DNA from: a virus
Taxonomy: Duplodnaviria > Heunggongvirae > Uroviricota > Caudoviricetes
Length of the DNA: 26,073 nucleotides
IMG/VR virus record: IMGVR_UViG_3300008110_000029
Reading direction: 5' to 3' (one strand)
Below the pieces are notes generated by a model. It did not search any database. It worked only from the letters and a program-made list of their open reading frames with translations, and had not been told where the DNA came from. A program made the translations under genes and the position numbers. How positions within the stretch are numbered: the stretch's first letter is position 1; every line of letters starts with the position of its first letter. Below, piece by piece: positions 2,274 through 16,054 of the stretch.

Positions 2274-3137
2274 ATGGATTTAGTAACTATTGCGTGTGAG
2301 CAAGATTTTGATGTAATGCGACTACAGGCCGAAAGCATCAGTAAGTTTCTACAGCCATGTACACATTGGGTTACTATTAACGAACGTTTTCCAGATAAGC
2401 AACGCTGGAAGGACATGTTAGAGCCATACTACACAAAACATAAACTTGTTTTATTATTTCCTAAATGGTACGAATACTTGCATGTCCCTGATGGATTTGA
2501 GCGCCACCAAGTTTATAAACTTAAAATGGTCAACTATATAAAAGACGAAGAGTTTTTATGTTTAGACCCTAAAGACTTTTTTGTTAAACCTTGCAGTACG
2601 ACTGACTGGGCAGGTGTACTAGGTTGCGGTTGGATCGCTTATGATTCTAACTGGGAACCAGTTATTAAACGATTTGCTGAATACTTTAATGTAGACCCTG
2701 TAAGAGAAAAACAGTTTGCGTCAGAATGTCCGTTTGTATGGCGTACTGAACTAGTTAAAAGTTTAGGTGATATTGAAAAGTTTTGTAGCTGGTATTTAAA
2801 AGGTAAGTGTGGTGAACTAGTATTGTATTCATATCTTGCTAATCATCTAGTTGACGAGTCATTTGTTCCTCGTAAATTTGCTAGAATATTTTGGAGGGGA
2901 GAAACAGTTAACGAAACTGTTTTACAAGATACCTATAATACAGATTACGTTAAAGTTATGGGGTTCCACAGATATGTACGCTATGCCGCAACTGACGAAC
3001 AACTTGCGGCTATTAATGTTTGGCTTAACCAACTAGGATTTAAAACACCTGTTGTAAGATTTAAACCATCTTGGTTTGAACGTTTTAGAAACAGCCGTTA
3101 TTACAAAACGCTCAACTCTGGAAATACATCTCGATAA
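2274..3137 (+). CDS. Hypothetical protein, possibly glycosyltransferase-like (GT-A/DUF6492-like)
   Basis: ATG at 2274 directly follows the upstream stop, so the 2121 start is an overlap extension. N-terminal LVTIAC strand and acidic LDPKD motif. Confidence 0.5.
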   Translation: MDLVTIACEQDFDVMRLQAESISKFLQPCTHWVTINERFPDKQRWKDMLEPYYTKHKLVLLFPKWYEYLHVPDGFERHQVYKLKMVNYIKDEEFLCLDPKDFFVKPCSTTDWAGVLGCGWIAYDSNWEPVIKRFAEYFNVDPVREKQFASECPFVWRTELVKSLGDIEKFCSWYLKGKCGELVLYSYLANHLVDESFVPRKFARIFWRGETVNETVLQDTYNTDYVKVMGFHRYVRYAATDEQLAAINVWLNQLGFKTPVVRFKPSWFERFRNSRYYKTLNSGNTSR

Positions 3138-4399
3138 TTAGTTCCACGCTGTGTATCTGTGGTTTCTAAATAATCTAGTAGTGTAGGAATTTTATCAGTC
3201 CAGTCTGCTGAATTCATGTATTTGATTAATCCCATCCAACGTTGAGCACCATATGGGTCTGTAGCAAAGTCTTTGTAGCCCATATGTTTAGCACAAAAAT
3301 ATTCAATGCGTTTTGCTACTTGATCTTTAATTTCTTTTGGTAGAACACGTACATTTAAGTAATCGGGCAAGTAGACTAAGTGTGTTCCAATAATGCCAGC
3401 GCCATGCGGTGGCAAATTAATCTTTTTAAAGTTCTTGCTAATCTTCCAATTGGCTAATTCTGGTATGCTTGATACGTTAAGCAACTGTACAGCACAAGCA
3501 ATATTAATAATAATGTTATCGGGTGTGTCGTCTAATCTTTCTAAGTTAGTAACAACATTATTCCATTTACTAGGATAACGAATATAATCGTTACGTTGGC
3601 CAAAAGCATCTACACTAAAGTTAAATTTAACCTGCTTAAAATAATTCCACAACTCAAATAACTTCTCCGGCAGTTCCATGCCGTTGCTGTTATAACGTAG
3701 TACACAGTTCTTAGCATTACCTGTTTCAACCATAAACTCTAATATTTTATAGTGTTCTGGTATAAGCAACGGTTCACCACCTGCAAAGTACAACTCTTTG
3801 ATATTGTGTGATTGCGTTCTTAAACTTGATAAGAATTCACCTTTTTGATACCAAGTGTAGTCAAAGTCAATGTTCCATCCTTGATCTTGTTTAAGTTCTA
3901 TTGTTTTGTATTTTGGATACTGTGCTTTCCATTCTTTAATCCAACTACTTGAATCGTGTGGACTACACATAATACACTTTAACTGGCACATATTCCCCAG
4001 GCGTAAATCAAAGTAAGGAATGTCTACAGGCAAAGTTCCGTCGAGGGTTGTTCTAGACACAACGGCATCAAGGTTTAATCGTTCTTTCCACACAACAGTT
4101 TCCCATTGGCGTTTACTAACAATACCGTTGAGTTCTTCTTGATAACATTTGGTACAACTGTATGGTTGTTCTCCATTAAGCATTTGTAGCCGTGTCTGCT
4201 TCATAAAACTGCTGTTCCACACTTGCTCAATTGAGTGTGATTGTAAGTTCATGTTTACGCCATTATCTTTAACAAGGCCTGATTCTTTGTCTGCGGTACC
4301 CGCACCAGATGCGTTAGCAGTGCAACATAAACGGACATCGCCGTTAGGTCTAGTAGCTAAATGGATCCATGGTAATGGACAAAATGTTTTATTGAACAA
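3101..4399 (-). CDS. Twitch-domain radical SAM protein (N-terminal twitch/SPASM-like domain)
   Basis: N-terminal CPLPW..RLCC..CTKC, then CQLKCIMC, FAGGEP, YNSNG, FSVDA. TTG start overlaps the upstream stop. Confidence 0.88.
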   Translation of the reverse strand: MFNKTFCPLPWIHLATRPNGDVRLCCTANASGAGTADKESGLVKDNGVNMNLQSHSIEQVWNSSFMKQTRLQMLNGEQPYSCTKCYQEELNGIVSKRQWETVVWKERLNLDAVVSRTTLDGTLPVDIPYFDLRLGNMCQLKCIMCSPHDSSSWIKEWKAQYPKYKTIELKQDQGWNIDFDYTWYQKGEFLSSLRTQSHNIKELYFAGGEPLLIPEHYKILEFMVETGNAKNCVLRYNSNGMELPEKLFELWNYFKQVKFNFSVDAFGQRNDYIRYPSKWNNVVTNLERLDDTPDNIIINIACAVQLLNVSSIPELANWKISKNFKKINLPPHGAGIIGTHLVYLPDYLNVRVLPKEIKDQVAKRIEYFCAKHMGYKDFATDPYGAQRWMGLIKYMNSADWTDKIPTLLDYLETTDTQRGTNYRDVFPELSVL

Positions 4400-5444
4400 T
4401 TTGGTCTCTTGGTTTTATAAAATCAGTATTTGTGCCACAGGTTCTAGCACAAGTCACTAGTTTATTGATAGACCAAAAATCATCCCATACAGTTTGATAC
4501 GCATGGCTTTCTATGATCTCTTTGATTGATCTTTCAAAAGTATTAACAGATCCTAATTTCTTTACCAATTCATCGTGTTGCTCTCTCATCTTTTGCCTTA
4601 CTGCTAACGCCTCATCTGGATTAATATAACTGTACGGAACGCTAGCTAACCAACAACATGGAAAAAGATCTCCATATGCATCAATGTAAACTTCTTTATC
4701 ATTTTTAGACTTGCAACTAATGATAGATTTGTCAACTATTTGTTGATAATTATCAATTATCTTTTTATCTATAAATTTTAAAGGTACATCTGATGCTGGT
4801 TCTATAAAATGGGTTATTTTCTTTTGTTTATTCATTACATTTATTTTAGGTTCTAATATGAATCTACTAGAATTTTTAAGAGTAAAATATTTAAAACCTA
4901 ATTGTTGAGATAGTAATCTTGCTTCGTCAACTTGATGTTCATTGTGTTTAAATTTTATAAAAACCCATTCGGCAATACCCCCGGCTTCAATAAATGTTTT
5001 GGCATTTTCTAAAACAGTTTCAAACTTGGTTCCTATTCTGTATAATTGATGAGTATCGAATAGACCATCTAATGCAAACACTACTCTATGATTTTTTGGT
5101 AGGACATTCGCTAAAGTTTTCCACCAATCAACAGATCTAGCACTACCGTTAGTGTGGATTACAATTCCGGTATTTGGCGAATGATTATTGCTATATTCAC
5201 ACATTTTTATTAGATCGTTATTAAGAATTGGATCTCCAAAGTTGCCACAAAAATAATAACTACTAAGTTGTTGCAATACTTCTAAAGTTATTACTTTTTT
5301 AAAATCATCAATAGTCCAATTTTTTATTTTGATCAATGGATTGTCTATTCCTCCATTTATATTTCTATTACACATAGGGCAACTAGCTTGACAATTGTTT
5401 GTAATTTCAAGATGAATTTGTTTTAAATTTGAAAAATTAAACAT
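4389..5444 (-). CDS. Radical SAM protein with C-terminal SPASM/twitch domain
   Basis: CQASCPMC, CGNFGDP, HTNG, FALDG and C-terminal C..GDLFPCC..CARTC. Confidence 0.88.
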   Translation of the reverse strand: MFNFSNLKQIHLEITNNCQASCPMCNRNINGGIDNPLIKIKNWTIDDFKKVITLEVLQQLSSYYFCGNFGDPILNNDLIKMCEYSNNHSPNTGIVIHTNGSARSVDWWKTLANVLPKNHRVVFALDGLFDTHQLYRIGTKFETVLENAKTFIEAGGIAEWVFIKFKHNEHQVDEARLLSQQLGFKYFTLKNSSRFILEPKINVMNKQKKITHFIEPASDVPLKFIDKKIIDNYQQIVDKSIISCKSKNDKEVYIDAYGDLFPCCWLASVPYSYINPDEALAVRQKMREQHDELVKKLGSVNTFERSIKEIIESHAYQTVWDDFWSINKLVTCARTCGTNTDFIKPRDQIVQ

Positions 5445-6423
5445 TTTTTTCTTTTGGTATTTTGCTGTCTGCAGAACTTACACAAGTTTCTGTTATGCAC
5501 GAAACAGGATTTCCAAATAAACTAAATCCCTGTTCTAAAGTTCCCAATCTTAAATCTCTGCAACTGTATCCTCTTTTTACTTCATTACCTCGTATAATGA
5601 CACTTTGGTATCCTGAATTACATTTCCAATCTTTAAATTTGTTAAACCCAAATGCATTAAATCTTTCTGCTTGATCAAACAGATATTCTCTGCCTTCTTG
5701 ATCGTACAGAGCAATCTGATATAGTTGTTCTCCCTCTACTGTTTGTGGAAATCCTGTTTGCATTAGATTGATCATTTCCTCAGTGTAACCACTTACTACA
5801 AAACTAGCAGTAGGATCGCTCTGAGGTTTTAAAGTTACATTAATGCCTTTCTTATGAAACCTCTCGCAGCGTTCATATAATTCGTAAAACTTTTCAGGTA
5901 CCATTACTTGATTGACAGTAACATAAACATATTCGTTCATTAATTTTAAGCATTTGTTAACGAAATCTGATTCTTTAGCATGTTCTACATGGTAACTGGC
6001 TGTAACACTCTTTCTCTGCAACATACTAACAGCATTGGCCCAACTTTTCCACCAATTGATGCTCGGGCTGAGATTGGTAGTCATGTGTACACTTTGGTAC
6101 GGTGTAGTTGGACCATCGTCAAGATGTTGTATTAATTGCAACAGATCTTTGTAGGCTGTGGGTTCTCCGCCACTGAAACTCCAATGAAAACGATTAAATC
6201 CATTATTACGGGCTTGACTTTTTATTTGATCGATTGTATTCTTGTAAACTTCAATGGTTTGGTGATCGGGTTTGTCACTGTGTGCATAGGGCCAACAATA
6301 GGAACAACTGTAGTTACAAAATCTTCCTAGGATCCAACTCACAGAAAACAGATTAGTGTCTAACATTGTACGTTGACCAAATCTTACAACTTGCTCAAAA
6401 GGTATTTTTTGAAATTCTGACAT
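5437..6423 (-). CDS. Radical SAM protein
   Basis: CNYSCSYC, FSGGEP, TTN and C-terminal CNSG..C..CITETCVS; paralogous to 757-1611. Confidence 0.88.
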   Translation of the reverse strand: MSEFQKIPFEQVVRFGQRTMLDTNLFSVSWILGRFCNYSCSYCWPYAHSDKPDHQTIEVYKNTIDQIKSQARNNGFNRFHWSFSGGEPTAYKDLLQLIQHLDDGPTTPYQSVHMTTNLSPSINWWKSWANAVSMLQRKSVTASYHVEHAKESDFVNKCLKLMNEYVYVTVNQVMVPEKFYELYERCERFHKKGINVTLKPQSDPTASFVVSGYTEEMINLMQTGFPQTVEGEQLYQIALYDQEGREYLFDQAERFNAFGFNKFKDWKCNSGYQSVIIRGNEVKRGYSCRDLRLGTLEQGFSLFGNPVSCITETCVSSADSKIPKEKNV

Positions 6424-6517
6424 ATATAAATAAAGTTAGAATATTTAGTGAGTTATTTTTTTGCTAGTGAGATTTTAGAATTTGGCGAAATTGCCACATT
6501 TGAGTGCAAAATTTTTG

Positions 6518-6546
6518 TTGACAGCTAAATAAACATACCATATAAT
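6518..6546 (+). promoter_or_regulatory. Consensus sigma70 promoter upstream of leader ORF and tRNA array
   Basis: TTGACA (6518-6523), 17 bp, TATAAT (6541-6546). Confidence 0.9.
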
Positions 6547-6590
6547 TATTAAACGCTGCATGGTGCAGCCTAAAAAGGATATAGAAGCAA

Positions 6591-6731
6591 ATGAAATTAA
6601 CGTCATTACATGGACAATTTAGATCGATAGCCAAACAGGCAGGCTTTATGCCCACCTATTGGTCATGCGAGACAATTAGCCTATCTAATGATCGTGTGCC
6701 AGGTAAGGGGTCCGTGAAGATCACGAGTTAA
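6591..6731 (+). CDS. Putative attenuator leader peptide, 46 aa: MKLTSLHGQFRSIAKQAGFMPTYWSCETISLSNDRVPGKGSVKITS
   Basis: AAGGA at 6575-6579, ATG 6591, TAA 6729-6731. The 3' end overlaps the antiterminator arm. Below the ORF-track size cut-off. Confidence 0.7.
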   Translation: MKLTSLHGQFRSIAKQAGFMPTYWSCETISLSNDRVPGKGSVKITS

Positions 6732-6792
6732 CGAAAAAGTAAACTCAAACTTCAAAAGGACCCCAGGATTAAAAACCCTGGGGTTTTTGTTT
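6707..6792 (+). terminator. Attenuator: antiterminator (6707-6764) competing with intrinsic terminator (6761-6792)
   Basis: Terminator CCCCAGG 6761-6767 / CCTGGGG 6777-6783 plus TTTTTGTTT. Antiterminator GGGGTCC 6707-6713 / GGACCCC 6758-6764, TGAAG/CTTCA, GAGTT/AACTC. Confidence 0.8.
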
Positions 6793-6806
6793 GTAGCAAG
6801 GATAAA

Positions 6807-6965
6807 ATGAAATTTGATATTGAAGACAGTTATAAAGTAGAGCACAGTGAAGGTTTTGTTTTAACTGAAGACCAGTTTAAAAAACTAATTGAGTCTAAAG
6901 TTGAAAGAAACAAAGCACTTTACTCGCTGGACAAAGTGCGGGAACGTAGGGAAAACCTTTCGTAG
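6807..6965 (+). CDS. Hypothetical 52-aa protein (MKFDIEDSYKVEHSEG...)
   Basis: AAGGA RBS, ATG 6807, TAG 6963-6965; first ORF after the attenuator. Confidence 0.6.
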   Translation: MKFDIEDSYKVEHSEGFVLTEDQFKKLIESKVERNKALYSLDKVRERRENLS

Positions 6966-7082
6966 AACGCGAAGTGTAATAGGGAACGCGACCCTGCAGG
7001 GCACTATAAACATCTTGCTACTAATGAGGGCGGCCTTGGGGATGAGAAGTCTGTGGCGATAACGCAGATGTGTAAAAACCAA

Positions 7083-7205
7083 GTGTAGTTAAGTATTCAC
7101 CATTCGCCCTACGACGGCGTCTAAAAGCATAGCGGAGAATACTTAACTACACACTCTCCTAATCATTTCAAAAAAAGGAATGAATGGTTACAATTAGGAG
7201 AGTGT
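7083..7205 (+). repeat. Two adjacent long inverted repeats (16 bp and 13 bp perfect stems)
   Basis: GTGTAGTTAAGTATTC 7083-7098 / 7137-7152; ACACTCTCCTAAT 7151-7163 / 7193-7205. Confidence 0.85.
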
Positions 7206-7215
7206 TATTTGTTAT

Positions 7216-7303
7216 GGATGGGTGTGCCGAATGGTTGAAGGCAACGGACTGTAAATCCGCCACATAAGAAACGCTGTAGGTTCGAATCCTACTCCATCCA
7301 CCA
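7216..7303 (+). tRNA. tRNA-Tyr(GTA)
   Basis: Cloverleaf, loop CTGTAAA, long variable region, TTCGAAT, CCA. Confidence 0.93.
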
Positions 7304-7307
7304 CTGT

Positions 7308-7382
7308 GTATCCCTGGTGTTAACGGCAGCATGACGGTCTCCAAAACCGCTGGTGGGGGTTCGAATCCCTCGGGGTATGCCA
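7308..7382 (+). tRNA. tRNA-Trp(CCA)
   Basis: Loop CTCCAAA, TTCGAAT, CCA. Confidence 0.92.
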
Positions 7383-7393
7383 TTGAAACACGG

Positions 7394-7435
7394 CCTTTGT
7401 CTCTAGGTCATAGATCTACACAAAGGTTCTTTTTT
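7394..7435 (+). terminator. Possible intrinsic terminator after tRNA-Trp
   Basis: CCTTTGT/ACAAAGG stem with inner TCTA/TAGA, followed by TTCTTTTTT. Confidence 0.4.
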
Positions 7436-7437
7436 AT

Positions 7438-7512
7438 GCACGGTTCGTCTATCGGTTAGGACACCCGCCTTTCACGCAGGTAAGAGGGGTTCGATTCCCC
7501 TACCGTGTACCA
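7438..7512 (+). tRNA. tRNA-Glu(TTC)
   Basis: Loop CTTTCAC, TTCGATT, CCA. Confidence 0.93.
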
Positions 7513-7518
7513 TATAAT

Positions 7519-7596
7519 GTGAGGATGGCAGAGAGGCCCAATGCAAGAGTCTGCAAAACTCTAAAACCGTCGGTTCGAATCCGACTCCTCACTCCA
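7519..7596 (+). tRNA. tRNA-Cys(GCA)
   Basis: Loop CTGCAAA, U73, CCA. Confidence 0.93.
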
Positions 7597-7625
7597 TTGA
7601 CATTTATATTTTTTTTCTATATTAT
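7597..7625 (+). promoter_or_regulatory. sigma70-like promoter for the nuclease-like ORF
   Basis: TTGACA, 17 bp, TATTAT. Confidence 0.7.
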
Positions 7626-7630
7626 AAGGT

Positions 7631-8092
7631 ATGGGACAAAGATTTTTAGAAAGCCTTAAAATTGGTGAAACTTGGGAAACTAAGATGGAAGATTGGATGC
7701 AAAGACATTTTGCAAAAACCAATTGGACTATTCACGACACTAGGGATATTCATAGAGACAGCGACGACGATCAGATTCCTGATTACGTTTTACACAATGT
7801 TCAATCAGACAAAGCCTGTTTTATTGATGCTAAAAAAAGAAATGTCTATAATATCCGAGGCGTTAATTATTTTGGATTTGATGAAAAATTTTACACCAGC
7901 TATACAAACATAGCTCGTAAATGTAACACAAAAGTTTATATAGGATTCAATGATCCTATATATGATTCAACTCATGTTTATATTCTTGATGTGGATCACC
8001 CTCCATCATTAAGACTCTACTTCAATAATGAGTATGGTAAAGGATACGCCTATCGTTGGCGTGTTGAAGATTTAACAAAATACAAAATCTAG
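7631..8092 (+). CDS. Putative PD-(D/E)xK-fold nuclease
   Basis: E..MEDW helix, then IPDY and FIDAKKR, matching PD..(D/E)xK catalytic spacing. Confidence 0.6.
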   Translation: MGQRFLESLKIGETWETKMEDWMQRHFAKTNWTIHDTRDIHRDSDDDQIPDYVLHNVQSDKACFIDAKKRNVYNIRGVNYFGFDEKFYTSYTNIARKCNTKVYIGFNDPIYDSTHVYILDVDHPPSLRLYFNNEYGKGYAYRWRVEDLTKYKI

Positions 8093-8181
8093 GAAGTGTG
8101 GCAGAGTCCGGTTTATTGCACCTGTCTTGAAAACAGACGATCAGAAATGGTCCGTGAGTTCAAATCTCACCGCTTCCGCCA
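8092..8181 (+). tRNA. tRNA-Ser(TGA)
   Basis: Loop CTTGAAA, long variable arm, G73, CCA. First base overlaps the upstream TAG. Confidence 0.93.
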
Positions 8182-8185
8182 ATAA

Positions 8186-8260
8186 GGTCTCAAAGTGTTT
8201 ATGGACGCACACAAGCCTGTCACGCTTGAAGAAGGGGATCGTTACCCCTTGGGACCGCCA
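8186..8260 (+). tRNA. tRNA-Asp(GTC)
   Basis: Loop CTGTCAC, atypical T-loop ATCGTTA, G73, CCA. Confidence 0.88.
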
Positions 8261-8278
8261 CAATAAGGAGAACTCAAA

Positions 8279-8308
8279 ATGGGGCGATCGCAGTTATTAT
8301 TATGTTAG
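8279..8308 (+). other. Putative minigene MGRSQLLLC
   Basis: AAGGAG 8265-8270, ATG GGG CGA ... TAG. Confidence 0.35.
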
Positions 8309-8326
8309 TAGTGTTAATATTGTATA

Positions 8327-8355
8327 TTGACAAGAATCTTAAATGAAAGTAAATT
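8327..8355 (+). promoter_or_regulatory. sigma70-like promoter
   Basis: TTGACA, 17 bp, TAAATT. Confidence 0.55.
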
Positions 8356-8376
8356 ATGTTCACAAAGGAGAACGAC

Positions 8377-8433
8377 ATGAAACGAGGTAAACAGTAGTGT
8401 CGCCTGGAATCCCGTATGGTCCAGGTTGGCACA
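8377..8433 (+). other. Putative minigene MKRGKQ (8377-8397) followed by a hairpin
   Basis: AAAGGAG RBS, ATG AAA CGA GGT AAA CAG TAG; CCTGGA/TCCAGG-centred stem 8398-8433. Confidence 0.45.
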
Positions 8434-8459
8434 GTAAATCAACTTAATACGGACTATAT

Positions 8460-8534
8460 GGGAGTATAGCTCAGCGGTAGAGCAGCGGACTTTTAATCCG
8501 TTGGTCCAGGGTTCAAATCCCTGTGCTCCTACCA
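8460..8534 (+). tRNA. tRNA-Lys(TTT)
   Basis: Loop CTTTTAA, TTCAAAT, CCA. Confidence 0.94.
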
Positions 8535-8611
8535 TATAAAAACATATTAACCACAGCCTGCACACATAGAAGCAGGGTGCATAGCACATTGTTGTTCGTG
8601 TGTTTCTATAT

Positions 8612-8686
8612 GGTAATGTAGCATAACGGTAGTGCAGCACCTTCATACGGTGTTCAGTGAAAGTTCAACTCTTTCCATTACCACCA
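8612..8686 (+). tRNA. tRNA-CAT, probably elongator Met
   Basis: Loop TTCATAC as in many bacterial elongator tRNA-Met, G1-C72 paired, CCA. Ile2 not excluded. Confidence 0.8.
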
Positions 8687-8687
8687 T

Positions 8688-8762
8688 GCCTGTTTAGCTC
8701 AGTGGTAGAGCATCGTCTTGATAAGGCGAGGGTCCGTGGATCGTTCCCACGAACAGGCACCA
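8688..8762 (+). tRNA. tRNA-Ile(GAT)
   Basis: Loop TTGATAA, atypical T-loop ATCGTTC, CCA. Confidence 0.88.
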
Positions 8763-8763
8763 A

Positions 8764-8988
8764 GTTTGTAGCGTCAGCAAGAGAAAAACACATTGTTGAG
8801 AGGTTCGAAACTTAATACAGTGTAAAGCAGATGTGGGTTCAACTCCCAGCGGATCGGAAGATCCGCGCAGATTGGTTGCCGCTGGTTAAGTATCTCAAGT
8901 GACATGTCCTGGAAAACCTCCGCATAAGGAAGTCCGGCTCTGTATGCGTAAACACTAGTGATAAACCTGAGGACACTGGGCTACAATT
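8764..8988 (+). ncRNA. Candidate structured ncRNA, about 225 nt, unknown family
   Basis: Closing stem TTGTAGC/GCTACAA; T-arm-like TGGG-TTCAACT-CCCA; GCGGATC-GGAA-GATCCGC; TGTCCT/AGGACA; CGCATA/TATGCG. Confidence 0.55.
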
Positions 8989-8997
8989 CAATTTAAT

Positions 8998-9074
8998 CGG
9001 TCCTTACGTCAACTGGAGAGACTACCTGTCTTCGAAACAGGAGGTTGTGGGTTCAAATCCTGCAGGACCGGCCA
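8998..9074 (+). tRNA. tRNA-Arg(TCG)
   Basis: Stem CCTGT/ACAGG, loop CTTCGAA, CCA. Confidence 0.88.
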
Positions 9075-9079
9075 GTTAT

Positions 9080-9155
9080 TGGGGATTCGCCAAGTTGGTA
9101 AGGCACCGGATTTTGATTCCGGCATTCGGTGGTTCGAGTCCATCATCCCCAGCCA
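9080..9155 (+). tRNA. tRNA-Gln(TTG)
   Basis: Loop TTTTGAT, U1-A72, G73, CCA. Confidence 0.94.
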
Positions 9156-9157
9156 AT

Positions 9158-9233
9158 GGTGTCCTTAATGTAGTGGCCTGCATACTAGTCTGTGAAACTG
9201 GAAGTACGAGATCGATACTCGTAGGACACCCCA
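9158..9233 (+). tRNA. tRNA-His(GTG), including G-1
   Basis: Loop CTGTGAA, G-1:C73 pair, T-loop ATCGATA, CCA. Confidence 0.9.
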
Positions 9234-9235
9234 AT

Positions 9236-9311
9236 GCTGCTTTAGCTGATGTGGTCATAGCGGCGGTCTGAAGAGCCGTTGAACTAGGTTCGATTCCTAG
9301 AGGCAGCACCA
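9236..9311 (+). tRNA. tRNA-Phe(GAA)
   Basis: Loop CTGAAGA, TTCGATT, CCA. Confidence 0.92.
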
Positions 9312-9314
9312 TAT

Positions 9315-9391
9315 GCGGATGTGATGGAATTGGTATACATATCAGACTTAAAATCTGAGTCCTGAGGGTTCGAGTCCCTCCATCCGTACCA
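9315..9391 (+). tRNA. tRNA-Leu(TAA), short 5-nt variable loop
   Basis: Loop CTTAAAA, Leu-type D arm GGAATTGGTATAC, A73, 77 nt. Confidence 0.88.
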
Positions 9392-9407
9392 GAACAAGGA
9401 GATTAAC

Positions 9408-9593
9408 ATGAAAACCTTATTATTCAAAAATCGTATGAACAGTGAACAATTTTATTGTAATGATCCTAAGGTTGTTCAAACTATAGATGGAGTGGAATAT
9501 CTTGTTGTTCATCGACCAGGACAAGAAAGACAATTCCTTATGCGTAAAGATGCATTAGAAAAAATAGGAAAAGTTGTTGACAAGACTAAGTAA
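9408..9593 (+). CDS. Hypothetical protein, 61 aa
   Basis: AAGGAG RBS; sits in a tRNA spacer. Confidence 0.75.
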   Translation: MKTLLFKNRMNSEQFYCNDPKVVQTIDGVEYLVVHRPGQERQFLMRKDALEKIGKVVDKTK

Positions 9594-9605
9594 TTCTGCA
9601 ATAAT
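9577..9605 (+). promoter_or_regulatory. sigma70-like promoter
   Basis: TTGACA, 17 bp, AATAAT. Confidence 0.6.
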
Positions 9606-9616
9606 TAAATTTTTAT

Positions 9617-9693
9617 GCCCCGGTGACGGAATTGGTATACGTGTTGGTCTTAGAAGCCAAATTTTAGGAGTTCGAGTCTCCTCTGGGGCACCA
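9617..9693 (+). tRNA. tRNA-Leu(TAG), short 5-nt variable loop
   Basis: Loop CTTAGAA, Leu-type D arm, A73, 77 nt. Confidence 0.88.
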
Positions 9694-9702
9694 AGGAATA
9701 TT

Positions 9703-9915
9703 ATGGAAGAAGATATTGACTTTTTTGAATTTGCAGAATTAATGCAGAAATATGAACAAGCTCTTGGTGGAATAGAATTTTCTATAGAACAAAAACCAGG
9801 ACCTCAGGAAGGCGATGAAGTTTGGCAACTCGACATTGATGGACAAACTGTGTTTTTTCAAAACTTTGATGAAGTTAAAGTTTACTTAGATAAATTAGTT
9901 GTAGAAAGAAATTAA
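9703..9915 (+). CDS. Hypothetical acidic protein, 70 aa
   Basis: AAGGA RBS, ATG 9703; the track's 9574 start reads through a tRNA. Confidence 0.65.
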   Translation: MEEDIDFFEFAELMQKYEQALGGIEFSIEQKPGPQEGDEVWQLDIDGQTVFFQNFDEVKVYLDKLVVERN

Positions 9916-9916
9916 T

Positions 9917-9991
9917 GCATCGTTAGTTCAGCGGTAGAACGTCGCCCTTACAAGGCGAATGTCAGTGGTTCGACTCCATTACGATGCACCA
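9917..9991 (+). tRNA. tRNA-Val(TAC)
   Basis: Loop CTTACAA, TTCGACT, CCA. Confidence 0.93.
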
Positions 9992-10000
9992 GCGTATCAG

Positions 10001-10100
10001 GCCTCTGTAGCTTAATTGGTAAAGACGGGAGCTTATATCTCCCCAAAGCACCGGCCAGATAAGCCGGCGTGTGCAGGTTCGAGTCCTGCCAGAGGCACCA
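10001..10100 (+). tRNA. Atypical tRNA with TAT anticodon (Ile) and 29-nt variable arm
   Basis: GCCTCTG/CAGAGGC acceptor, GGGAG-CTTATAT-CTCCC, variable hairpin CCGGC/GCCGG, GCAGG-TTCGAGT-CCTGC, ACCA. Confidence 0.75.
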
Positions 10101-10105
10101 GAATT

Positions 10106-10193
10106 GGAGAGTTGGCCGAGTGGTTAAGGCAGCGGTTTGCTAAACCGTCGTTGCGAAAGTGGCGCATAGGTTCGAATCCTATACTCTCCGCCA
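10106..10193 (+). tRNA. tRNA-Ser(GCT)
   Basis: Loop TTGCTAA, long variable arm, G73, CCA. Confidence 0.94.
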
Positions 10194-10213
10194 AGTTTAT
10201 AAAAGGAAAAATA

Positions 10214-10405
10214 ATGTTAAAAGCAGGTCCAAACTTTAAGTTAAGTAAGCAGTCCAAAAGATTGATAGCAACTATTATTGATAATCACGAACGTGGCGCA
10301 TTTAAACGTAGTGCTATTCAAGCAGAATTAGCAGCAGCTATTCAGCCCAAGAGAGAAAAAGGTAAACGAAACGAAGGATCTAGGGATAATGGTAGCAAAG
10401 AATGA
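10214..10405 (+). CDS. Hypothetical basic protein, 63 aa
   Basis: AAGGA RBS, ATG 10214; the track's 10016 start lies inside tRNAs. Confidence 0.7.
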   Translation: MLKAGPNFKLSKQSKRLIATIIDNHERGAFKRSAIQAELAAAIQPKREKGKRNEGSRDNGSKE

Positions 10406-10637
10406 TGTCACTGGGGATTCCATTCAGACTAAGTCAGCATCAAAATCTTACAGAGATAACTACGATAATATTTTTAGAAAGAACACTATGACACCTAAAT
10501 TGCAAGAAAACGATAATGAAGTTGGTAAATGTGGCTGCGGTCGTAGTCCAACTGGAAAGTGCATCGGATGGCATTCATTGTCCGAATCAGAGTATCAAAA
10601 ACGTTTAGCAGAATCTAAAGCAGTACAACAATCCTAA
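10389..10637 (+). CDS. Small protein with CDGSH-like Cys/His motif
   Basis: CGCGRSPTGKCIGWH resembles the CxCxxS..CDGSH 2Fe-2S motif. Confidence 0.6.
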   Translation: MVAKNDVTGDSIQTKSASKSYRDNYDNIFRKNTMTPKLQENDNEVGKCGCGRSPTGKCIGWHSLSESEYQKRLAESKAVQQS

Positions 10638-10647
10638 GGAAACTATC

Positions 10648-10851
10648 GTGAGAGAACAATTACTCAAAGCTGCAAAAGCACACTTCAAAAGTCATGTTGA
10701 AAAGCATCGCATGAATGTAGAAGTAATGTTAAATAATCCAATTGCTATACATGATCACACAGATTGGATGACTGCAATGGAAAATGAAATAGCACACATT
10801 GCTGAATATGAAGATAAATTAGAAGTGTTAGATAAACATTTCGGTAAATGA
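10648..10851 (+). CDS. Hypothetical protein, 67 aa
   Basis: AAGGA RBS, GTG start, helical His-rich sequence. Confidence 0.7.
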   Translation: MREQLLKAAKAHFKSHVEKHRMNVEVMLNNPIAIHDHTDWMTAMENEIAHIAEYEDKLEVLDKHFGK

Positions 10852-10856
10852 AATTA

Positions 10857-10932
10857 GGGCCAGTAGCTCATCTGGGAGAGCAGGACCTTTGCAAGGTCAA
10901 GGTGGCGGGTTCAAGTCCTGTCTGGTCCACCA
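10857..10932 (+). tRNA. tRNA-Ala(TGC)
   Basis: Loop TTTGCAA, G3:U70 identity pair, CCA. Confidence 0.93.
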
Positions 10933-10952
10933 AATAACAAAAAGGAAACATT

Positions 10953-11081
10953 ATGGCAGTTAAAGGTCAAGCAGGTACTCATAAAAGAGTTCACAAAAAT
11001 ACTTGTCAAAATGGTAGTAAGACATCTACTGCGAATAAGAGTAATAAAACTCGCAAAGCATATAGAGGACAAGGACGATAA
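10953..11081 (+). CDS. Small basic protein, 42 aa, ending YRGQGR
   Basis: AAGGA RBS; MAVKGQAGTHKRVHKNTCQNGSKTSTANKSNKTRKAYRGQGR. Not in the ORF track. Confidence 0.65.
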   Translation: MAVKGQAGTHKRVHKNTCQNGSKTSTANKSNKTRKAYRGQGR

Positions 11082-11083
11082 TT

Positions 11084-11245
11084 ATGGGCGAGAAAGGTGA
11101 TCCAATGAAAACCAAGACAGGAAAAACACGCCTTGGTCCTTTAAATCTTGCGCAACTCAATGACATGTTAGAGAAATCTAGCAGACCAAAAGATAAAGCA
11201 AAGATTCGTAATCGTATTAAACAATTAGAATCGAGCAGTAAGTAA
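11084..11245 (+). CDS. Small basic protein, 53 aa
   Basis: MGEKGDPMKTKTGKTRLGPLNLAQL...IKQLESSSK; follows the previous stop directly. Not in the ORF track. Confidence 0.6.
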   Translation: MGEKGDPMKTKTGKTRLGPLNLAQLNDMLEKSSRPKDKAKIRNRIKQLESSSK

Positions 11246-11250
11246 AAAAC

Positions 11251-11326
11251 GCTGGAGTAGCTCAGTTGGTAGAGCTCCTGATTTGTAATCAGGCGGTCGA
11301 GGGTTCGAATCCTTTCTCCAGCACCA
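11251..11326 (+). tRNA. tRNA-Thr(TGT)
   Basis: Loop TTTGTAA, TTCGAAT, CCA. Confidence 0.95.
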
Positions 11327-11333
11327 ATTGTCT

Positions 11334-12032
11334 ATGAAGTTATTTGCAAATGGATGCAGCCACACATGGGGCGGCGGAATCTTAGAAGAACAAGGTTTTG
11401 ATGGAGTATTATGGCCTAGTTTTTTTAATAAAGAAGAACAAGATAAAAAAAATTATCGGCTGTCTTCTGTATGGCCATCTCATTTATCAAATTTATTAAA
11501 TTGTACAGAAACAGTTAATTTTGCAATTGGGTGTGGATCAAATCAAAGAATAGTTAGAACAACGTTTGATTTTTTTATAGATAAAATAAAAAATAACGAA
11601 AATTTATCAGACTGGGTTGCAGTTATACAATGGACTGAACCATCAAGATATGAAATTTATGATGAAAAATTTGATAGATTTAATTTAATAAAATTAGATG
11701 TTGTAATTCCTAATGTTAAACAAAATAGATACGAGTACTTACAAAATAGATTTTACGAATCTGATGAACTGTTTATTTCAGAATTTTTAGTTCATCTTAA
11801 TTCTCTAGCATCGTTTTTTGACAAATGGAATATAAATTATAGATTTACTAGAATTAATCCTAGTCCGCCTATTCCAGACTATTATAAAAATAATTTAAAA
11901 TGGGTTGATGAATTTAGTTCAATGTTAGATCATCATAAAATATTTCAATATAAATGCGGCCATCCAAACATAGAAGGTCATAAATTAATAGCTAAAGAAC
12001 TTTACAATAGTTTTAAAAAAGATTATAATTAA
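11334..12032 (+). CDS. SGNH/GDSL-like hydrolase
   Basis: NGCSHT (block I), GCGSN (block II), GHPNIEGH (block V); ATG 11334. Confidence 0.7.
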   Translation: MKLFANGCSHTWGGGILEEQGFDGVLWPSFFNKEEQDKKNYRLSSVWPSHLSNLLNCTETVNFAIGCGSNQRIVRTTFDFFIDKIKNNENLSDWVAVIQWTEPSRYEIYDEKFDRFNLIKLDVVIPNVKQNRYEYLQNRFYESDELFISEFLVHLNSLASFFDKWNINYRFTRINPSPPIPDYYKNNLKWVDEFSSMLDHHKIFQYKCGHPNIEGHKLIAKELYNSFKKDYN

Positions 12033-12038
12033 GAATAT

Positions 12039-12113
<75 letters not shown>

Positions 12114-12121
12114 AATATCTA

Positions 12122-12184
12122 AGGCGGACCTGTAACCATATTCCGCCTCCGCTGACGCGAAAACAGGATGGGCTGCGCTCACGG
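12122..12184 (+). ncRNA. Candidate two-hairpin kissing-loop RNA element
   Basis: AGGCGGA/TCCGCCT hairpin; its loop (CCTGT, CCAT) is complementary to the second loop (ACAGG, ATGG). Confidence 0.45.
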
Positions 12185-12188
12185 GGTT

Positions 12189-12226
12189 TGACAATCTTCC
12201 TGACACAAAAAAGATTGTCACTTTTT
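12189..12226 (+). terminator. Intrinsic terminator
   Basis: TGACAATCTT/AAGATTGTCA 10-bp stem plus CTTTTT. Confidence 0.65.
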
Positions 12227-12235
12227 CAAAAAGAC

Positions 12236-12264
12236 TTGACTAAAGTCTTTTTTTATCATATACT
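12236..12264 (+). promoter_or_regulatory. sigma70 promoter with an inverted repeat across the -35
   Basis: TTGACT, 17 bp, TATACT; AAAAAGACTT 12228-12237 / AAGTCTTTTT 12243-12252. Confidence 0.75.
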
Positions 12265-12270
12265 AGTTTT

Positions 12271-12545
12271 GTTGTAACAGAAATGTTGCAACCGGTGAAG
12301 TAAAAGGTAGATGAGAATAGACATATTGTGGCTTCATGCCGCAATGACTTAATCTGGCAAACACTCTTGAAAAGTGTCGTGCTTGAGTGAACCGATTCCA
12401 AATATCTTTTATTAGACTGTCAATTGCTGATCGGAAATATTCAGGCCTCTGTAGCCTGTTTGTTGCACGTTGTAGAAGGAAATGCCTCATACGCTATCCT
12501 GTCTGTCAATTGTCCGGTCTATTACTTGACCTTTTACCGAACCGT
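12271..12545 (+). ncRNA. Candidate multibranch structured ncRNA or leader upstream of rpoZ
   Basis: Long-range stems GTAAAAGGT/ACCTTTTAC and AATAGAC/GTCTATT; internal hairpins; 5' GAAA-capped hairpin; no supported CDS. Confidence 0.5.
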
Positions 12546-12566
12546 CATTATAATAAGGAGCGAGCA

Positions 12567-12812
12567 ATGGCAAAAGTAACATCAGAAAAAGCAGTAGAAC
12601 AAATTGGAAACAGATTTAATTTAGTGCTAGCGGCATCACAACGTGCAAGAGAATTAAAAAATGGTTCTATGCAACGTGTAGAAGGAAAGGATGCCTCAAC
12701 AACTGTAACTGCACTAAGAGAAATTGAACAAGGCAAATATACTTGGAAAGATTATTTGAGCAAAGTTAAAGGCAAAAAAAGGAAAGAAACAGATGAATAT
12801 CACACTACGTAA
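12567..12812 (+). CDS. rpoZ: RNA polymerase omega subunit homologue
   Basis: [30 protein letters not shown]...[12 protein letters not shown] matches the omega consensus (IGNRFDLVL.AARRARQ...TVIALREIEEG); AAGGAG RBS. Confidence 0.9.
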
Positions 12813-13365
12813 AGCAAGTGCTGTACAAAACAGCATCAATGAAGCAATCAAACATATCAAGATTGAAACTAATCTTGAACTCAACGAGTTTCAAAATGTA
12901 GAAGCAGAGATTGCTGCTGCACAAAAAAAACTAGAAGAAGCTGATCTTCGTCGTGAAAAGTTGTTGGTTGTACTCTACAACATTCGCGGCCTAGTTGGTC
13001 AAGCTAATGCCGAAAGCGGCATTGATCTTAAGTTGGCTCGTGCAGCCTATGTTGACAAGAGAATTAGTCAACTTGATGCTGTTGCTAACAGCAATGCAGT
13101 AACCAGCCTTGACGTACTTAAAGGTAAACTTGAGAAAATCAAAAGTCTCAAAGACGAAGCACGTAGTCGCATTTATGGTTACGGCGACACTGTAACAACT
13201 TCTGTACTGACACAGGAAAAGATTGAAGCAATTCAATCCGAGATTAAAAATCTTAAAAAACAAAAACAAAAGCTCAATGACGAAATTCTTGAGCTTAATA
13301 TTAAAACTGAGATTCCACTCAGTGACGAAGCAGCTCAAGTCCTTCAAATAGAAGGTTTGATCTAA
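12793..13365 (+). CDS. Hypothetical coiled-coil protein, 190 aa
   Basis: Overlaps the rpoZ end; heptad-rich. Confidence 0.8.
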
Positions 13366-13565
13366 CAGACCCCTGTTACACTTTTCAGGAAGAAAGTGCG
13401 CCATTACCAAGCGATAGAAGGTACGGTGTTTAGGATCTACCGCAAGGCTCTCTTTAGGAGCGACTTGAGAAATCCTAGGTACGAACTGTAACGGCGCCAG
13501 AAGCAGAATACAGTGGACAGGGTAACAACTCAGTCTAGGGCGGACAGGGAACCGTGGCTAGACAC

Positions 13566-13730
13566 TTTTATTGATAGCACTCTGCAGGTATCGTTTGTGG
13601 ACGCACAGACTCATGAAGAATAGGGCCATCTTTCTCTTCTGATAAAACTGCGGGCAATGGCTTATGAGGAGAATCGAACTCCACTCAGAAATTTGCTCAG
13701 TCCTATAAGGCTTGAGTACTATCAATAAAA
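13566..13730 (+). ncRNA. Candidate structured RNA closed by a 17-bp near-perfect stem
   Basis: TTTTATTGATAGCACTC 13566-13582 / GAGTACTATCAATAAAA 13714-13730, one mismatch. Confidence 0.45.
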
Positions 13731-13736
13731 GTTTGA

Positions 13737-13812
13737 CGCAGAGTATGGAAGTGGTCATCCGTCCGGTCTCATAAGCCGGGAATCGCAGGTTCGAATCCTG
13801 CCTCTGCAACCA
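13737..13812 (+). tRNA. Initiator-type tRNA-fMet(CAT)
   Basis: C1.A72 mismatch, purine11-pyrimidine24, loop CTCATAA, CCA; U31.G39 replaces the third GC pair. Confidence 0.82.
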
Positions 13813-13817
13813 ATTAC

Positions 13818-13896
13818 CCGGGTGTAGCTTAGTCTGGCTTAAAGCGCCTGCTTTGGGAGCAGGAGATCGTGAGTTCGAATCCCACTTCCCGGACCA
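13818..13896 (+). tRNA. tRNA-Pro(TGG)
   Basis: Loop TTTGGGA, C1-G72, A73, CCA. Confidence 0.92.
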
Positions 13897-13912
13897 TATT
13901 AAGGAGTATGAC

Positions 13913-14065
13913 ATGCCAATGTATGAAACAACTGTAAGAACATCCGGTGGTGAGGAAAAGAAAAGAATCTATGCAGATACACCGCAAGAGGCTAAAAAAC
14001 TTTTTGAACAACTGTATGGTGGTCCTAGAGCAGTACCTTACATTCCTCATGTGGTACCAAGTTAA
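13913..14065 (+). CDS. Hypothetical protein, 50 aa
   Basis: AAGGAG RBS, ATG 13913. Confidence 0.7.
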   Translation: MPMYETTVRTSGGEEKKRIYADTPQEAKKLFEQLYGGPRAVPYIPHVVPS

Positions 14066-14068
14066 TTT

Positions 14069-14109
14069 CGCCCTGACACATGGCGTACAATGAGATAAGT
14101 AGTGTGTCA
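14069..14109 (+). ncRNA. Candidate H-type pseudoknot
   Basis: CGCC 14069-72 / GGCG 14082-85; loop TGACACA 14074-80 / TGTGTCA 14103-09. Confidence 0.5.
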
Positions 14110-14115
14110 TTTAAT

Positions 14116-14191
14116 GCGGGTGTAGCTCAGTTGGTAGAGCGTAACTTTGCCAAAGTTAAGGTCGACAGTTCGAGACTGTTCACCCGCTCCA
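14116..14191 (+). tRNA. tRNA-Gly(GCC)
   Basis: Loop TTGCCAA, U73, CCA. Confidence 0.93.
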
Positions 14192-14202
14192 AAGGATATT
14201 AA

Positions 14203-14598
14203 ATGTTAGAATGTTTAATTGTAGGTGATAGTATTGCTGTTGGTACTGCTCAGTTCAGACCAGAATGTGTAAGTTTGAGTAAAGGCGGTATTAACAGTCA
14301 TGACTGGAATAAAAAGAATCGTGACAATCCCGTAGCAGCTAAAACTGTAATAATCAGTCTTGGATCTAACGATCATTCTGGCGTTCGCACACTCTGGGAA
14401 TTACAACAGTTAAGAAACAGAGTAAATGCAGATAAAGTATATTGGATAATGCCAGCTATCAAACCGCATATACAAAAGATGGTCGAACTAGTTGCAAAAG
14501 ATTATAATGATGTTATAATTCCAATTACTAAATTACAAAAAGATGGTGTTCACCCCACCGGAGCAGGTTATAAAGAGATTGCAGCAAAAACAAAATGA
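14203..14598 (+). CDS. SGNH/GDSL hydrolase
   Basis: GDSIA, SLGSND, DGVHP motifs. Confidence 0.85.
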   Translation: MLECLIVGDSIAVGTAQFRPECVSLSKGGINSHDWNKKNRDNPVAAKTVIISLGSNDHSGVRTLWELQQLRNRVNADKVYWIMPAIKPHIQKMVELVAKDYNDVIIPITKLQKDGVHPTGAGYKEIAAKTK

Positions 14599-14616
14599 CT
14601 GTATAATGTTTTTCAT

Positions 14617-14690
14617 GCGGGATTAGTTTAATGGTAAAACGAAAGCCTTCCAAGCTCTAGTCATCGGTTCGATTCCGATATTCCGCTCCA
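14617..14690 (+). tRNA. tRNA-Gly(TCC)
   Basis: Loop CTTCCAA, U73, CCA. Confidence 0.93.
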
Positions 14691-14695
14691 AGTTT

Positions 14696-14770
14696 CTGGC
14701 TGTAGTTCAATGGATAGAACAAGGGTCTTCTAAACCCTAAATCTAGGTTCGATTCCTAGCAGCCGGGCCA
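14696..14770 (+). tRNA. tRNA-Arg(TCT)
   Basis: Loop CTTCTAA, TTCGATT, CCA. Confidence 0.93.
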
Positions 14771-14777
14771 TTTACTA

Positions 14778-14853
14778 GCTGATGTGGCACAGTAGGTAGC
14801 GCACATTCTTGGTAAGAATGAGGTCAGCGGTTCGATCCCGCTCATCAGCACCA
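14778..14853 (+). tRNA. tRNA-Thr(GGT)
   Basis: Loop TTGGTAA, TTCGATC, CCA. Confidence 0.93.
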
Positions 14854-14866
14854 AATAAATAACAGT

Positions 14867-15109
14867 ATGAAAGAGCTACTGGAAAAGCTGCCGCAGATAT
14901 TAGGAATGATGCCGCAAATCATTTCCTTTTTAAAATATATTCCTATCCTCATGCTATTAGCAGGTTTAGGTTACGGCGTTTATTATTTTGTTCAGAATAA
15001 AAAAGATCCTTACAAGTGTGTAAACAATCATGTATTTGAACAGTTGCGTATGGATTCAGATGTTTATGTATTTAAAGGCGGCACTTGTATAGATGCCAAC
15101 GATTTATAA
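14867..15109 (+). CDS. Small predicted membrane protein, 80 aa
   Basis: Hydrophobic IPILMLLAGLGYGVYYFV; C-terminal Cys pair; ATAAATA just upstream. Confidence 0.65.
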   Translation: MKELLEKLPQILGMMPQIISFLKYIPILMLLAGLGYGVYYFVQNKKDPYKCVNNHVFEQLRMDSDVYVFKGGTCIDANDL

Positions 15110-15883: not shown

Positions 15884-15920
15884 TCATTAGTTCGCTCCTA
15901 ATGGTTCAATGCTATTTATT

Positions 15921-16002
15921 GCCCCTGTGGCCAAATTGGTAAAGGCAGCTCTCTCAAAAGGAGTGTTAGATGTTCCCGGTTCGAGTCCGGGCAGGGGTAC
16001 CA
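15921..16002 (+). tRNA. tRNA-Leu(CAA)
   Basis: Loop CTCAAAA, 10-nt variable region, A73, CCA. Confidence 0.9.
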
Positions 16003-16009
16003 ATTTTCC

Positions 16010-16038
16010 TTGCATTTTAAGTGGGTTTATAATATAAT
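16010..16038 (+). promoter_or_regulatory. sigma70 promoter
   Basis: TTGCAT, 17 bp, TATAAT. Confidence 0.7.
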
Positions 16039-16054
16039 ATATAAAGGATAAATT

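Follow-up and report, generated by a model that had tools for sequence, protein, structure and literature searches.

A candidate ribosome-mediated attenuator with an all-amino-acid leader peptide ahead of a phage tRNA array

Phage transfer RNA (tRNA) arrays are common, and the control of their expression is largely unknown. What might govern such an array is the question raised by a short leader in a 26,073-nt piece of an uncultured freshwater phage-like genome (IMG/VR record IMGVR_UViG_3300008110_000029; G+C 38.5%), the whole of which is referred to here as the window. A first-pass annotation of the window, made from its letters alone, described this leader as a translation-sensing attenuator that reports on the tRNA pool in general, and every sequence feature it listed was found in its place. 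Comparative and thermodynamic evidence supports that description. The leader is probably a ribosome-mediated transcription attenuator in which the leader peptide samples the whole amino-acid alphabet and would sense aminoacyl-tRNA supply in general. The assignment is drawn from the parts of the leader and their conservation, from selection for a complete amino-acid set and from the covariation and thermodynamic preference of two hairpins; translation, termination and the response to stalling are inferred from these. Full-text searches of a literature library for published leader-peptide or attenuator control of phage tRNA genes returned nothing relevant.

Parts of the leader and its competing hairpins

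Relatives of neither the leader nor the adjacent radical-SAM gene were found by megablast, blastn or tblastn among 50,697 deposited phage genomes, where the sole match was a weak tail-fibre similarity to Synechococcus phages. Among IMG/VR contigs, an exact search with a 33-nt terminator string retrieved 41, a 16-nt string from inside the open reading frame (ORF) of the leader retrieved at least 120 further ones, and a nucleotide profile recognises the element in 127 loci. The family counts given below use differing subsets of these, namely 122 or 123 loci, 95–101 distinct sequences and, for RNAalifold, 69 full-length leaders. In 122 of 122 analysable loci a tRNA array follows the element on the same strand, the first tRNA standing 235–1040 nt past the leader stop codon where at least ~0.6 kb of downstream sequence is present. 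Opposite-strand tRNAs were never seen in these 122 loci, and there are usually no tRNAs upstream.

The leader of the window begins with a consensus promoter (Table 1), from which transcription is predicted to start near 6553. All 101 distinct relatives have a promoter that matches 10–12 of the 12 consensus positions, no more than 100 nt ahead of the ATG, and in the window as in all of these a short ORF stands between the promoter and the genes presumed to be regulated. The hairpin at the 5’ end of the transcript, probably a stabiliser of the RNA, recurs no more than 7 nt from the predicted 5’ end in 62 of 64 distinct long 5’ untranslated regions; its sequence differs between them, and its energy averages −9.0 kcal/mol, compared with −2.4 kcal/mol in shuffles. 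A Shine-Dalgarno (SD)-like AGGA at 6576–6579 precedes the ATG by 11 nt, which is a long distance. In a single clade comprising 24 of the 101 distinct relatives (L085, L090, L103, L114, L115, L134 and others), the −10 box ends 6–10 nt before the ATG; the leader mRNA of these members would be leaderless or nearly so, and one or two tRNA genes immediately precede the element.

Two hairpins occupy the 3’ part of the leader. The antiterminator pairs 6707–13 with 6758–64, 6715–19 with 6750–54 and 6725–29 with 6742–46. Its 5’ arm is formed by the last eight codons of the ORF, with the stop codon near the apex, and its 3’ arm, GGACCCC, holds the first four bases of the terminator 5’ arm. The two structures share the strand CCCC (6761–6764) and are mutually exclusive, as the first-pass annotation had held. 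The terminator stem is followed by TTTTTGTTTG in the DNA (UUUUUGUUUG in the RNA), and its core hairpin has an energy of −12.5 kcal/mol in the window. The AAGGA directly 5’ of the stem can pair with the U-tract, giving a 12-pair terminator of −18.6 kcal/mol (6755–6795, + strand). The A-rich terminator loop, AUUAAAAAC, is unusually conserved in the family and is predicted to pair with the U-tract in the antiterminator state.

Covariation was scored on a plain MAFFT alignment of 95 distinct 3’ regions, with 500 shuffles and slid positions as controls. The lower stem of the antiterminator was 98.3% paired, its outermost pair being G-C in 51 sequences and A-U in 35, and the terminator stem was likewise 98.3% paired, with double changes at five of its seven pairs. 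Both stems outscored all 500 shuffles and every slid control. A shared column holds C or U, and its partner is G or A both in the antiterminator arm and in the 3’ arm of the terminator; divergent members alter all three strands jointly, for example as GGAGTCT / AGACTCC / CCTGGAG. This three-way covariation is the hallmark of two alternative pairings, both of which matter. RNAalifold predicted the antiterminator unprompted from the full-length leaders.

Folding energies and ribosome masking gave the polarity of the proposed switch. Over 99 distinct relatives, the antiterminator had an energy of −24.0 ± 2.4 kcal/mol and the terminator core −11.5 ± 1.6 kcal/mol. Naked RNA ending at the antiterminator 3’ arm folded into the antiterminator in 97 of the 99, and naked full-length RNA did so in 81; when the end of the ORF was masked, mimicking a ribosome at the stop codon, the terminator formed in 97. 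In 94 of 100 relatives, 21–25 nt separate the start of the antiterminator arm from the stop codon, which places the end of the ORF within the 5’ arm. Given these folding preferences, RNA that is untranslated or slowly translated should be read through, and prompt, complete translation should terminate transcription. Both the covarying pairs and the response to the ribosome mask are thus as the first-pass annotation had predicted.

In the proposed mechanism, host RNA polymerase would start at the consensus promoter and transcribe the 46-codon ORF. A ribosome that keeps pace, and that is at the stop codon or the codons just before it as the polymerase makes 6761–6790, would occupy the antiterminator 5’ arm (6707–6730), upon which the terminator would fold and transcription would end at ~6790. 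Should the ribosome be delayed before about codon 36 by a scarce aminoacyl-tRNA, or should the RNA go untranslated, the more stable antiterminator would fold first and sequester GGACCCC, and the polymerase would continue into the genes downstream, which are a 52-amino-acid (aa) ORF, a structured RNA and the first tRNAs. The output would be more phage tRNA when decoding is slow, with negative feedback possible once phage tRNAs restore decoding.

Contigs from RNA libraries resemble both products. A 216-nt contig of a relative, from an aquaculture metatranscriptome, covers the equivalent of 6573–6784 and ends ~4 bases later, resembling a terminated leader RNA. Contigs of relatives from two river metatranscriptomes connect the terminator with the structured RNA downstream, as would either read-through RNA or contaminating DNA. 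Because the contigs derive from relatives, possibly with some DNA among them, and are uninformative about transcript ends, uncovered stretches and bin depth differences were given no weight.

The reading frame and the composition of its peptide

The ORF proposed in the first-pass annotation is conserved in length. Every relative (123 loci; 98 distinct) has an ATG-to-stop frame of 42–52 codons that closes 24–27 nt ahead of the terminator string. When the nucleotides were aligned without regard to frame, 233 of 261 gap runs within the ORF (89%) were divisible by three, compared with 48 of 272 (18%) past the stop codon. Because the frame survives insertions and deletions, the leader ORF is, on this comparative evidence, a real coding frame. 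The same figures bear on the proposal that the leader is a non-coding small RNA of ~240 nt, from promoter to terminator, in which the ORF is incidental. A strong promoter and a terminator do bracket a short unit, conservation is seen at the nucleotide level, the predicted fold is stable (z −3.8) and SD signals are weak, all of which would suit a small RNA; however, such an RNA would not be expected to keep its frame in 123 loci despite many indels, and the amino-acid completeness described below would be meaningless for it. We regard a non-coding small RNA as very improbable.

Selection on the frame does not follow the pattern seen in ordinary proteins. All three codon positions vary to the same degree (1.03, 0.94 and 1.02 bits), as they would not in a protein shaped by purifying selection of the usual kind. 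The few invariant residues (Trp and Asp-Arg-Thr-Pro-Glu) are invariant at synonymous sites too, the Asp-Arg-Thr-Pro-Glu codons being nearly fixed at their third positions; some of the conservation therefore acts on the RNA, and the peptide is for the most part free to vary. A nucleotide-conserved stretch within the ORF contains a candidate internal helix, on the 3’ side of which the window differs from the family consensus and reads CGTGTGCCAGG. This helix, UGGUCUGCGAU/AUCGCACACCA, was rejected as a pause or anti-antiterminator hairpin, as 81% of its cells were paired with zero compensatory change, no better than shuffles.

The ORF might alternatively encode a small functional protein, in the window possibly a precursor peptide for the adjacent radical-SAM enzymes, with the hairpins serving as a translation-coupled mRNA 3’ end. 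The conserved frame carries two motifs, AKQAGFMP.YW and NDRTPE, the 216-nt RNA-library contig looks like a discrete short transcript, and in the window three radical-SAM genes begin 95 nt upstream of the element on the opposite strand. The equal variability of the three codon positions does not, however, fit a protein under purifying selection of the usual kind; the motifs are conserved synonymously too, an indication of a constraint at the RNA level, and a functional peptide offers no reason for the compensatory relocation of single residues described below. The antiterminator, ~12 kcal/mol more stable than the terminator core, would also defeat a simple terminator unless a ribosome removed it. 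The last radical-SAM gene has relatives on more than 200 IMG/VR contigs at ~70–75% identity, not beside the leader, and the element was absent, within the flanks retrieved, from 80 of 80 loci found through the radical-SAM protein, whereas it always accompanies tRNA arrays. The adjacency of leader and radical-SAM genes is peculiar to this window, and the idea of a precursor of a ribosomally synthesized, post-translationally modified peptide was rejected given the radical-SAM loci elsewhere without the element. A small functional protein of any kind seems improbable.

The attenuator reading is distinguished by the composition of the leader peptide. In the window the peptide contains all 20 amino acids and is complete by codon 36, and its codons include all six for Ser, all four for Gly and all three for Ile; this content, including the 38 distinct codons, had been noted in the first-pass annotation and is read directly from the sequence. 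Taken alone, the complete set of amino acids is unremarkable, as a peptide of 46–47 residues contains all 20 amino acids with P ~0.02–0.04; the strong completeness statistics stem from the family and not from the window sequence alone. Of the 98 distinct IMG/VR peptides, 93 are complete and five fall one amino acid short; an internal Met is present in all. The probability that a random 47-mer is complete is 0.033 with the family composition, 0.039 with that of the long ORFs of the phages, and 0.024 for real 47-residue windows of those ORFs. Shuffling within alignment columns, by which site conservation is kept, gave 23.5 ± 4 complete peptides of 98, with a maximum of 35 in 500 shuffles. A tree-aware null was also run 300 times, with independent-site evolution on the family tree, column-specific frequencies and a root forced to be complete; at realistic divergence it gave a mean of 24–38 complete tips and a maximum of 74, and 93 was reached in none of the 300 runs. 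At the family level, coverage of the amino acids is thus far above composition-matched, column-shuffled and tree-aware expectations alike, the first of these being the comparison that the first-pass annotation had proposed.

Completeness is maintained while the residues that provide it move. Cys is single-copy in 84% of peptides; as the only copy it stands in any of 15 alignment columns, which requires no fewer than 30 changes of position over the tree, and only 2 of 98 peptides are without it. His is single-copy in 91%, with at least 28 placement changes, and Tyr in 83%, with at least 24, and neither is ever missing. Residue swaps recur in the alignment, as in YW...SNDR versus SW...SYDR, and in the clade of the window the Glu normally found in TPE is gone, its place being taken by the Glu of SCET. 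In 84 of 100 relatives the full set of 20 is encoded before the antiterminator arm begins, compared with 24 ± 4 when residue order is shuffled; a stalling sensor would require such a placement. An independent sample was obtained by a profile search of 1.84 billion cluster representatives, which gave 165 matches, 142 of them usable, in 50% identity clusters. Of these, 102 were complete, 36 lacked one residue and four lacked more, Cys and Val being missing most often. Amino-acid completeness therefore appears, from the comparison of sequences, to be strongly favoured by selection and not absolute. The gaps in a leader do not mirror missing tRNAs of its array, as one leader without Leu (L109) is followed by tRNA-Leu and another without Cys (L140) by tRNA-Cys.

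The same attenuator hardware could instead sense overall translation capacity, such as ribosome availability, initiation or the action of translation-blocking host defences or toxins, with the full amino-acid set a by-product or weakly relevant. Untranslated RNA defaults to read-through, so that any global loss of translation would switch the leader on; the whiB7 attenuator, compared below, is induced by many translation stresses; and 28% of the diverse relatives lack at least one amino acid. A capacity sensor, however, needs no particular composition, yet the single-copy Cys, His and Tyr have each been relocated at least 24–30 times with almost no loss. Completeness also exceeds every null, and the complete set is placed upstream of the antiterminator arm. 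Sensing of capacity alone is thus unlikely, and sensing of aminoacyl-tRNA supply in general remains the preferred explanation.

Whether selection extends from amino acids to codons was addressed with synonymous resampling. The 38 distinct codons of the window ORF compare with 32.1 ± 1.9 expected for the same peptide under the codon usage of the window (P = 0.00125), and the presence of all six Ser codons has P = 0.008. Relatives have a mean of 35.9 distinct codons per ORF, compared with 33.3 under resampling; both Ser codon boxes are represented in 101 of 101, and all 23 amino-acid/codon-box classes in 72 of 101, where 35 are expected. The codon diversity singled out by the first-pass annotation is thus above the resampling null. 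As these tests ignore shared ancestry, the pan-codon part of the proposal is taken as suggestive only. It is conceivable, though doubtful, that the leader is a homeostat of the tRNA pool at the isoacceptor level, in which selection would preserve, within the portion of the ORF that is sensed, a range of codon boxes along with the 20 amino acids, and by which the phage would gauge host and phage tRNA decoding class by class and shut off its own tRNA transcription once decoding was restored. Such a homeostat would rank as the first cis-acting element known to sense the decoding repertoire in full, and it would give the phage a natural answer to host defences that cleave tRNAs or to a loss of tRNAs in the course of infection. 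The link to host anticodon nucleases (PrrC, RloC, PARIS) is a motive rather than a finding.

Several observations weigh against the attenuator reading. Initiation signals are weak or unusual: an SD-like 4-mer is present in only 28 of 101 relatives, the AGGA of the window is distant from its ATG, and the 24 members of one clade are nearly leaderless. Because the reading frame is kept, these weak signals do not argue against translation. The minimum-free-energy structure of the naked full-length RNA of the window is the terminator, through a local pairing of 6609–15 with 6710–16; the terminator was the outcome in only 16–17 of 99 relatives, and the pairing was rejected as a general feature. Completeness is not absolute in the diverse representatives, which mostly lack Cys or Val when incomplete; Val is confined to the ribosome-masked tail in 11–20% of relatives, and the usual single Glu lies only 9–12 nt before the arm, at the limit of expected sensing. 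The codon-level tests are uncorrected for shared ancestry, and internal promoters leave most of the array independent of the switch. The strong nucleotide conservation in the ORF, its invariant third positions included, lacks an explanation in the model. The sole RNA data are assembled metatranscriptome contigs of relatives, which cannot show 3’ ends or regulation or exclude DNA.

Downstream genes and genomic setting

Table 1. Positions of the leader parts and neighbouring features in the window
Feature	Positions	Strand	Description
Three consecutive radical-SAM genes	3101–6423	−	432, 351 and 328 aa; point away from leader promoter
Sigma-70-type promoter	6518–6546	+	TTGACA 6518–6523, 17-nt spacer, TATAAT 6541–6546; 12/12 matches
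5’ transcript-end hairpin	6555–6569	+	GCUGCA (6555–6560)-UGG-UGCAGC (6564–6569); −8.3 kcal/mol
Leader ORF	6591–6731	+	46 codons plus TAA; 38 distinct codons
Nucleotide-conserved stretch in ORF	6660–6701	+	Family consensus UGGUCUGCGAU ... AUCGCACACCA; candidate internal helix
Antiterminator hairpin	6707–6764	+	−25.1 kcal/mol, z −6.2; folds as one hairpin
Intrinsic terminator	6761–6793	+	CCCCAGG 6761–67, 9-nt loop, CCUGGGG 6777–83
Conserved 52-aa protein	6807–6965	+	First gene past terminator; AlphaFold2 predicted local distance difference test score 82, two helices predicted
Structured non-coding RNA, ~230 nt	6972–7205	+	Between leader and first tRNA; same strand and position in at least 44 loci
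tRNA-Tyr(GTA) and tRNA-Trp(CCA)	7216–7382	+	First tRNAs of the 27–28-gene array; tRNA-Tyr begins at 7216
Hairpin followed by UUCUUUUUU	7392–7435	+	Between tRNA-Trp and tRNA-Glu; −15.1 kcal/mol, z −3.8
tRNA array	7216–16002	+	27 genes (28 by Rfam); all 20 amino acids covered

The 52-aa protein recurs with the leader (Table 1). A homologue of 45–65 aa starts 70–80 nt past the leader stop codon in most loci, and in most relatives the start lies ~15 nt after the terminator. The consensus is HTLT.EQ..KLI..K.ERA, with an invariant Lys and Arg. No match to the protein was found in PHROGs, Pfam or the PDB (Foldseek), and the ESM Atlas gave nothing usable. In the structured RNA that follows, several helices are kept through changes on both sides, as judged by eye on aligned sequences; examples are CCUUGG/CCAAG versus CCUACC/GGUAG, and a 16-bp stem at 7087–7156. 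The RNA (6972–7205) had no Rfam match at E values up to 1.

How far the switch would reach into the array is limited by two features. Near-consensus promoters lie at 7597, 9577, 12001 and 12526, and a terminator-like hairpin stands at 7392–7435, the nearest promoter after it being that at 7597. This hairpin is possibly the end of the attenuator-controlled unit, an internal terminator or a processing signal of the array. Because internal promoters feed the rest of the array and because of the hairpin, direct control is limited to its first part: the switch can directly gate only the first unit, consisting of the 52-aa ORF, the structured RNA, tRNA-Tyr and tRNA-Trp. The first-pass annotation had entered the same reservation about reach, and it holds. 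Within the array, a 97-nt stretch at 10001–10097 (+ strand) scores 57.5 bits against the Rfam tRNA model and was not called by ARAGORN; a 28th tRNA, carrying an insertion or a long extra arm, may lie here.

A single match to the leader was found among the genomes of 185,579 species, on a 6.2-kb contig binned into a Polynucleobacter metagenome-assembled genome (L224:5640–5930; JBBAKF010000113.1). This contig encodes a complete leader, with all 20 amino acids, and the beginning of a tRNA-Tyr gene. The contig is a weak host hint or a binning artefact, and is too weak for naming a host.

Comparison with known attenuators

The leader is best classed as a variant of the leader-peptide attenuator that departs from it in its even, complete composition. 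In the classical attenuators (trp, his, thr, leu, ilv, pheA), sensing is confined to the one to three cognate amino acids that occur as runs in the leader, and a 1:2 hairpin makes untranslated RNA terminate. The phage leader shares with them a short leader ORF, mutually exclusive hairpins that have a strand in common, a fold that would be set by ribosome position, and regulated genes that would relieve the shortage sensed. In contrast to them, it has no residue runs and no control codons enriched for one to three amino acids; its composition is even and complete. Untranslated phage leader is also predicted to be read through, no conserved anti-antiterminator was found in the family, and the products are tRNAs and a non-coding RNA rather than enzymes.

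In a T-box riboswitch, a single uncharged tRNA is recognised directly by means of a specifier codon and the T-box bulge, with no need for a ribosome. The likeness lies in a leader RNA with a competing antiterminator and terminator that reports on tRNA charging and controls genes of aminoacylation or translation supply. The phage leader differs in that it would be read by a translated ORF, for all amino acids at once, and has no specifier architecture. A cmscan of 6000–16500 at E values up to 1 gave only tRNA and chance plastid-motif matches, and no T-box (RF00230).

If the attenuator reading is correct, the phage array would have a built-in feedback through a direct test of decoding, and the leader would offer the clearest example in nature of a peptide selected for having a complete composition rather than for its sequence. 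Selection for completeness is an evolutionary signature that can be searched for elsewhere. As it has a perfect sigma-70 promoter and spans only ~280 nt, the element is directly testable in vitro, and it could act as a compact reporter of aminoacyl-tRNA limitation.

The closest functional analogue is the upstream ORF (uORF) attenuator of whiB7 (wblC) in mycobacteria and other Actinobacteria, in which efficient translation leads to rho-independent termination, and stalling or loss of the start codon leads to an antiterminator and read-through (PMC10274678). The residue content of the whiB7 uORF decides which starvations are sensed, as shown with Trp-less and His-less uORFs; that of M. smegmatis contains every amino acid but Cys and that of M. 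tuberculosis lacks several, and the uORFs are 25–40% Ala and variable in length (PMC10274678). Both systems place a promoter-proximal uORF of tens of codons and varied composition ahead of what would be the same switch logic. The phage leader, however, has no sequence or RNA homology to whiB7. Its composition is even, with no residue above 13% and Ala at 5.8% of family residues, and completeness itself appears to be selected. Neither an Ala-rich uORF nor a downstream WhiB-family gene is present; the genes that follow are the 52-aa protein, the non-coding RNA and the tRNAs. By analogy, then, the leader would work like the whiB7 uORF attenuator without being homologous to it, and would gate tRNA genes where whiB7 is a transcription factor for drug resistance.

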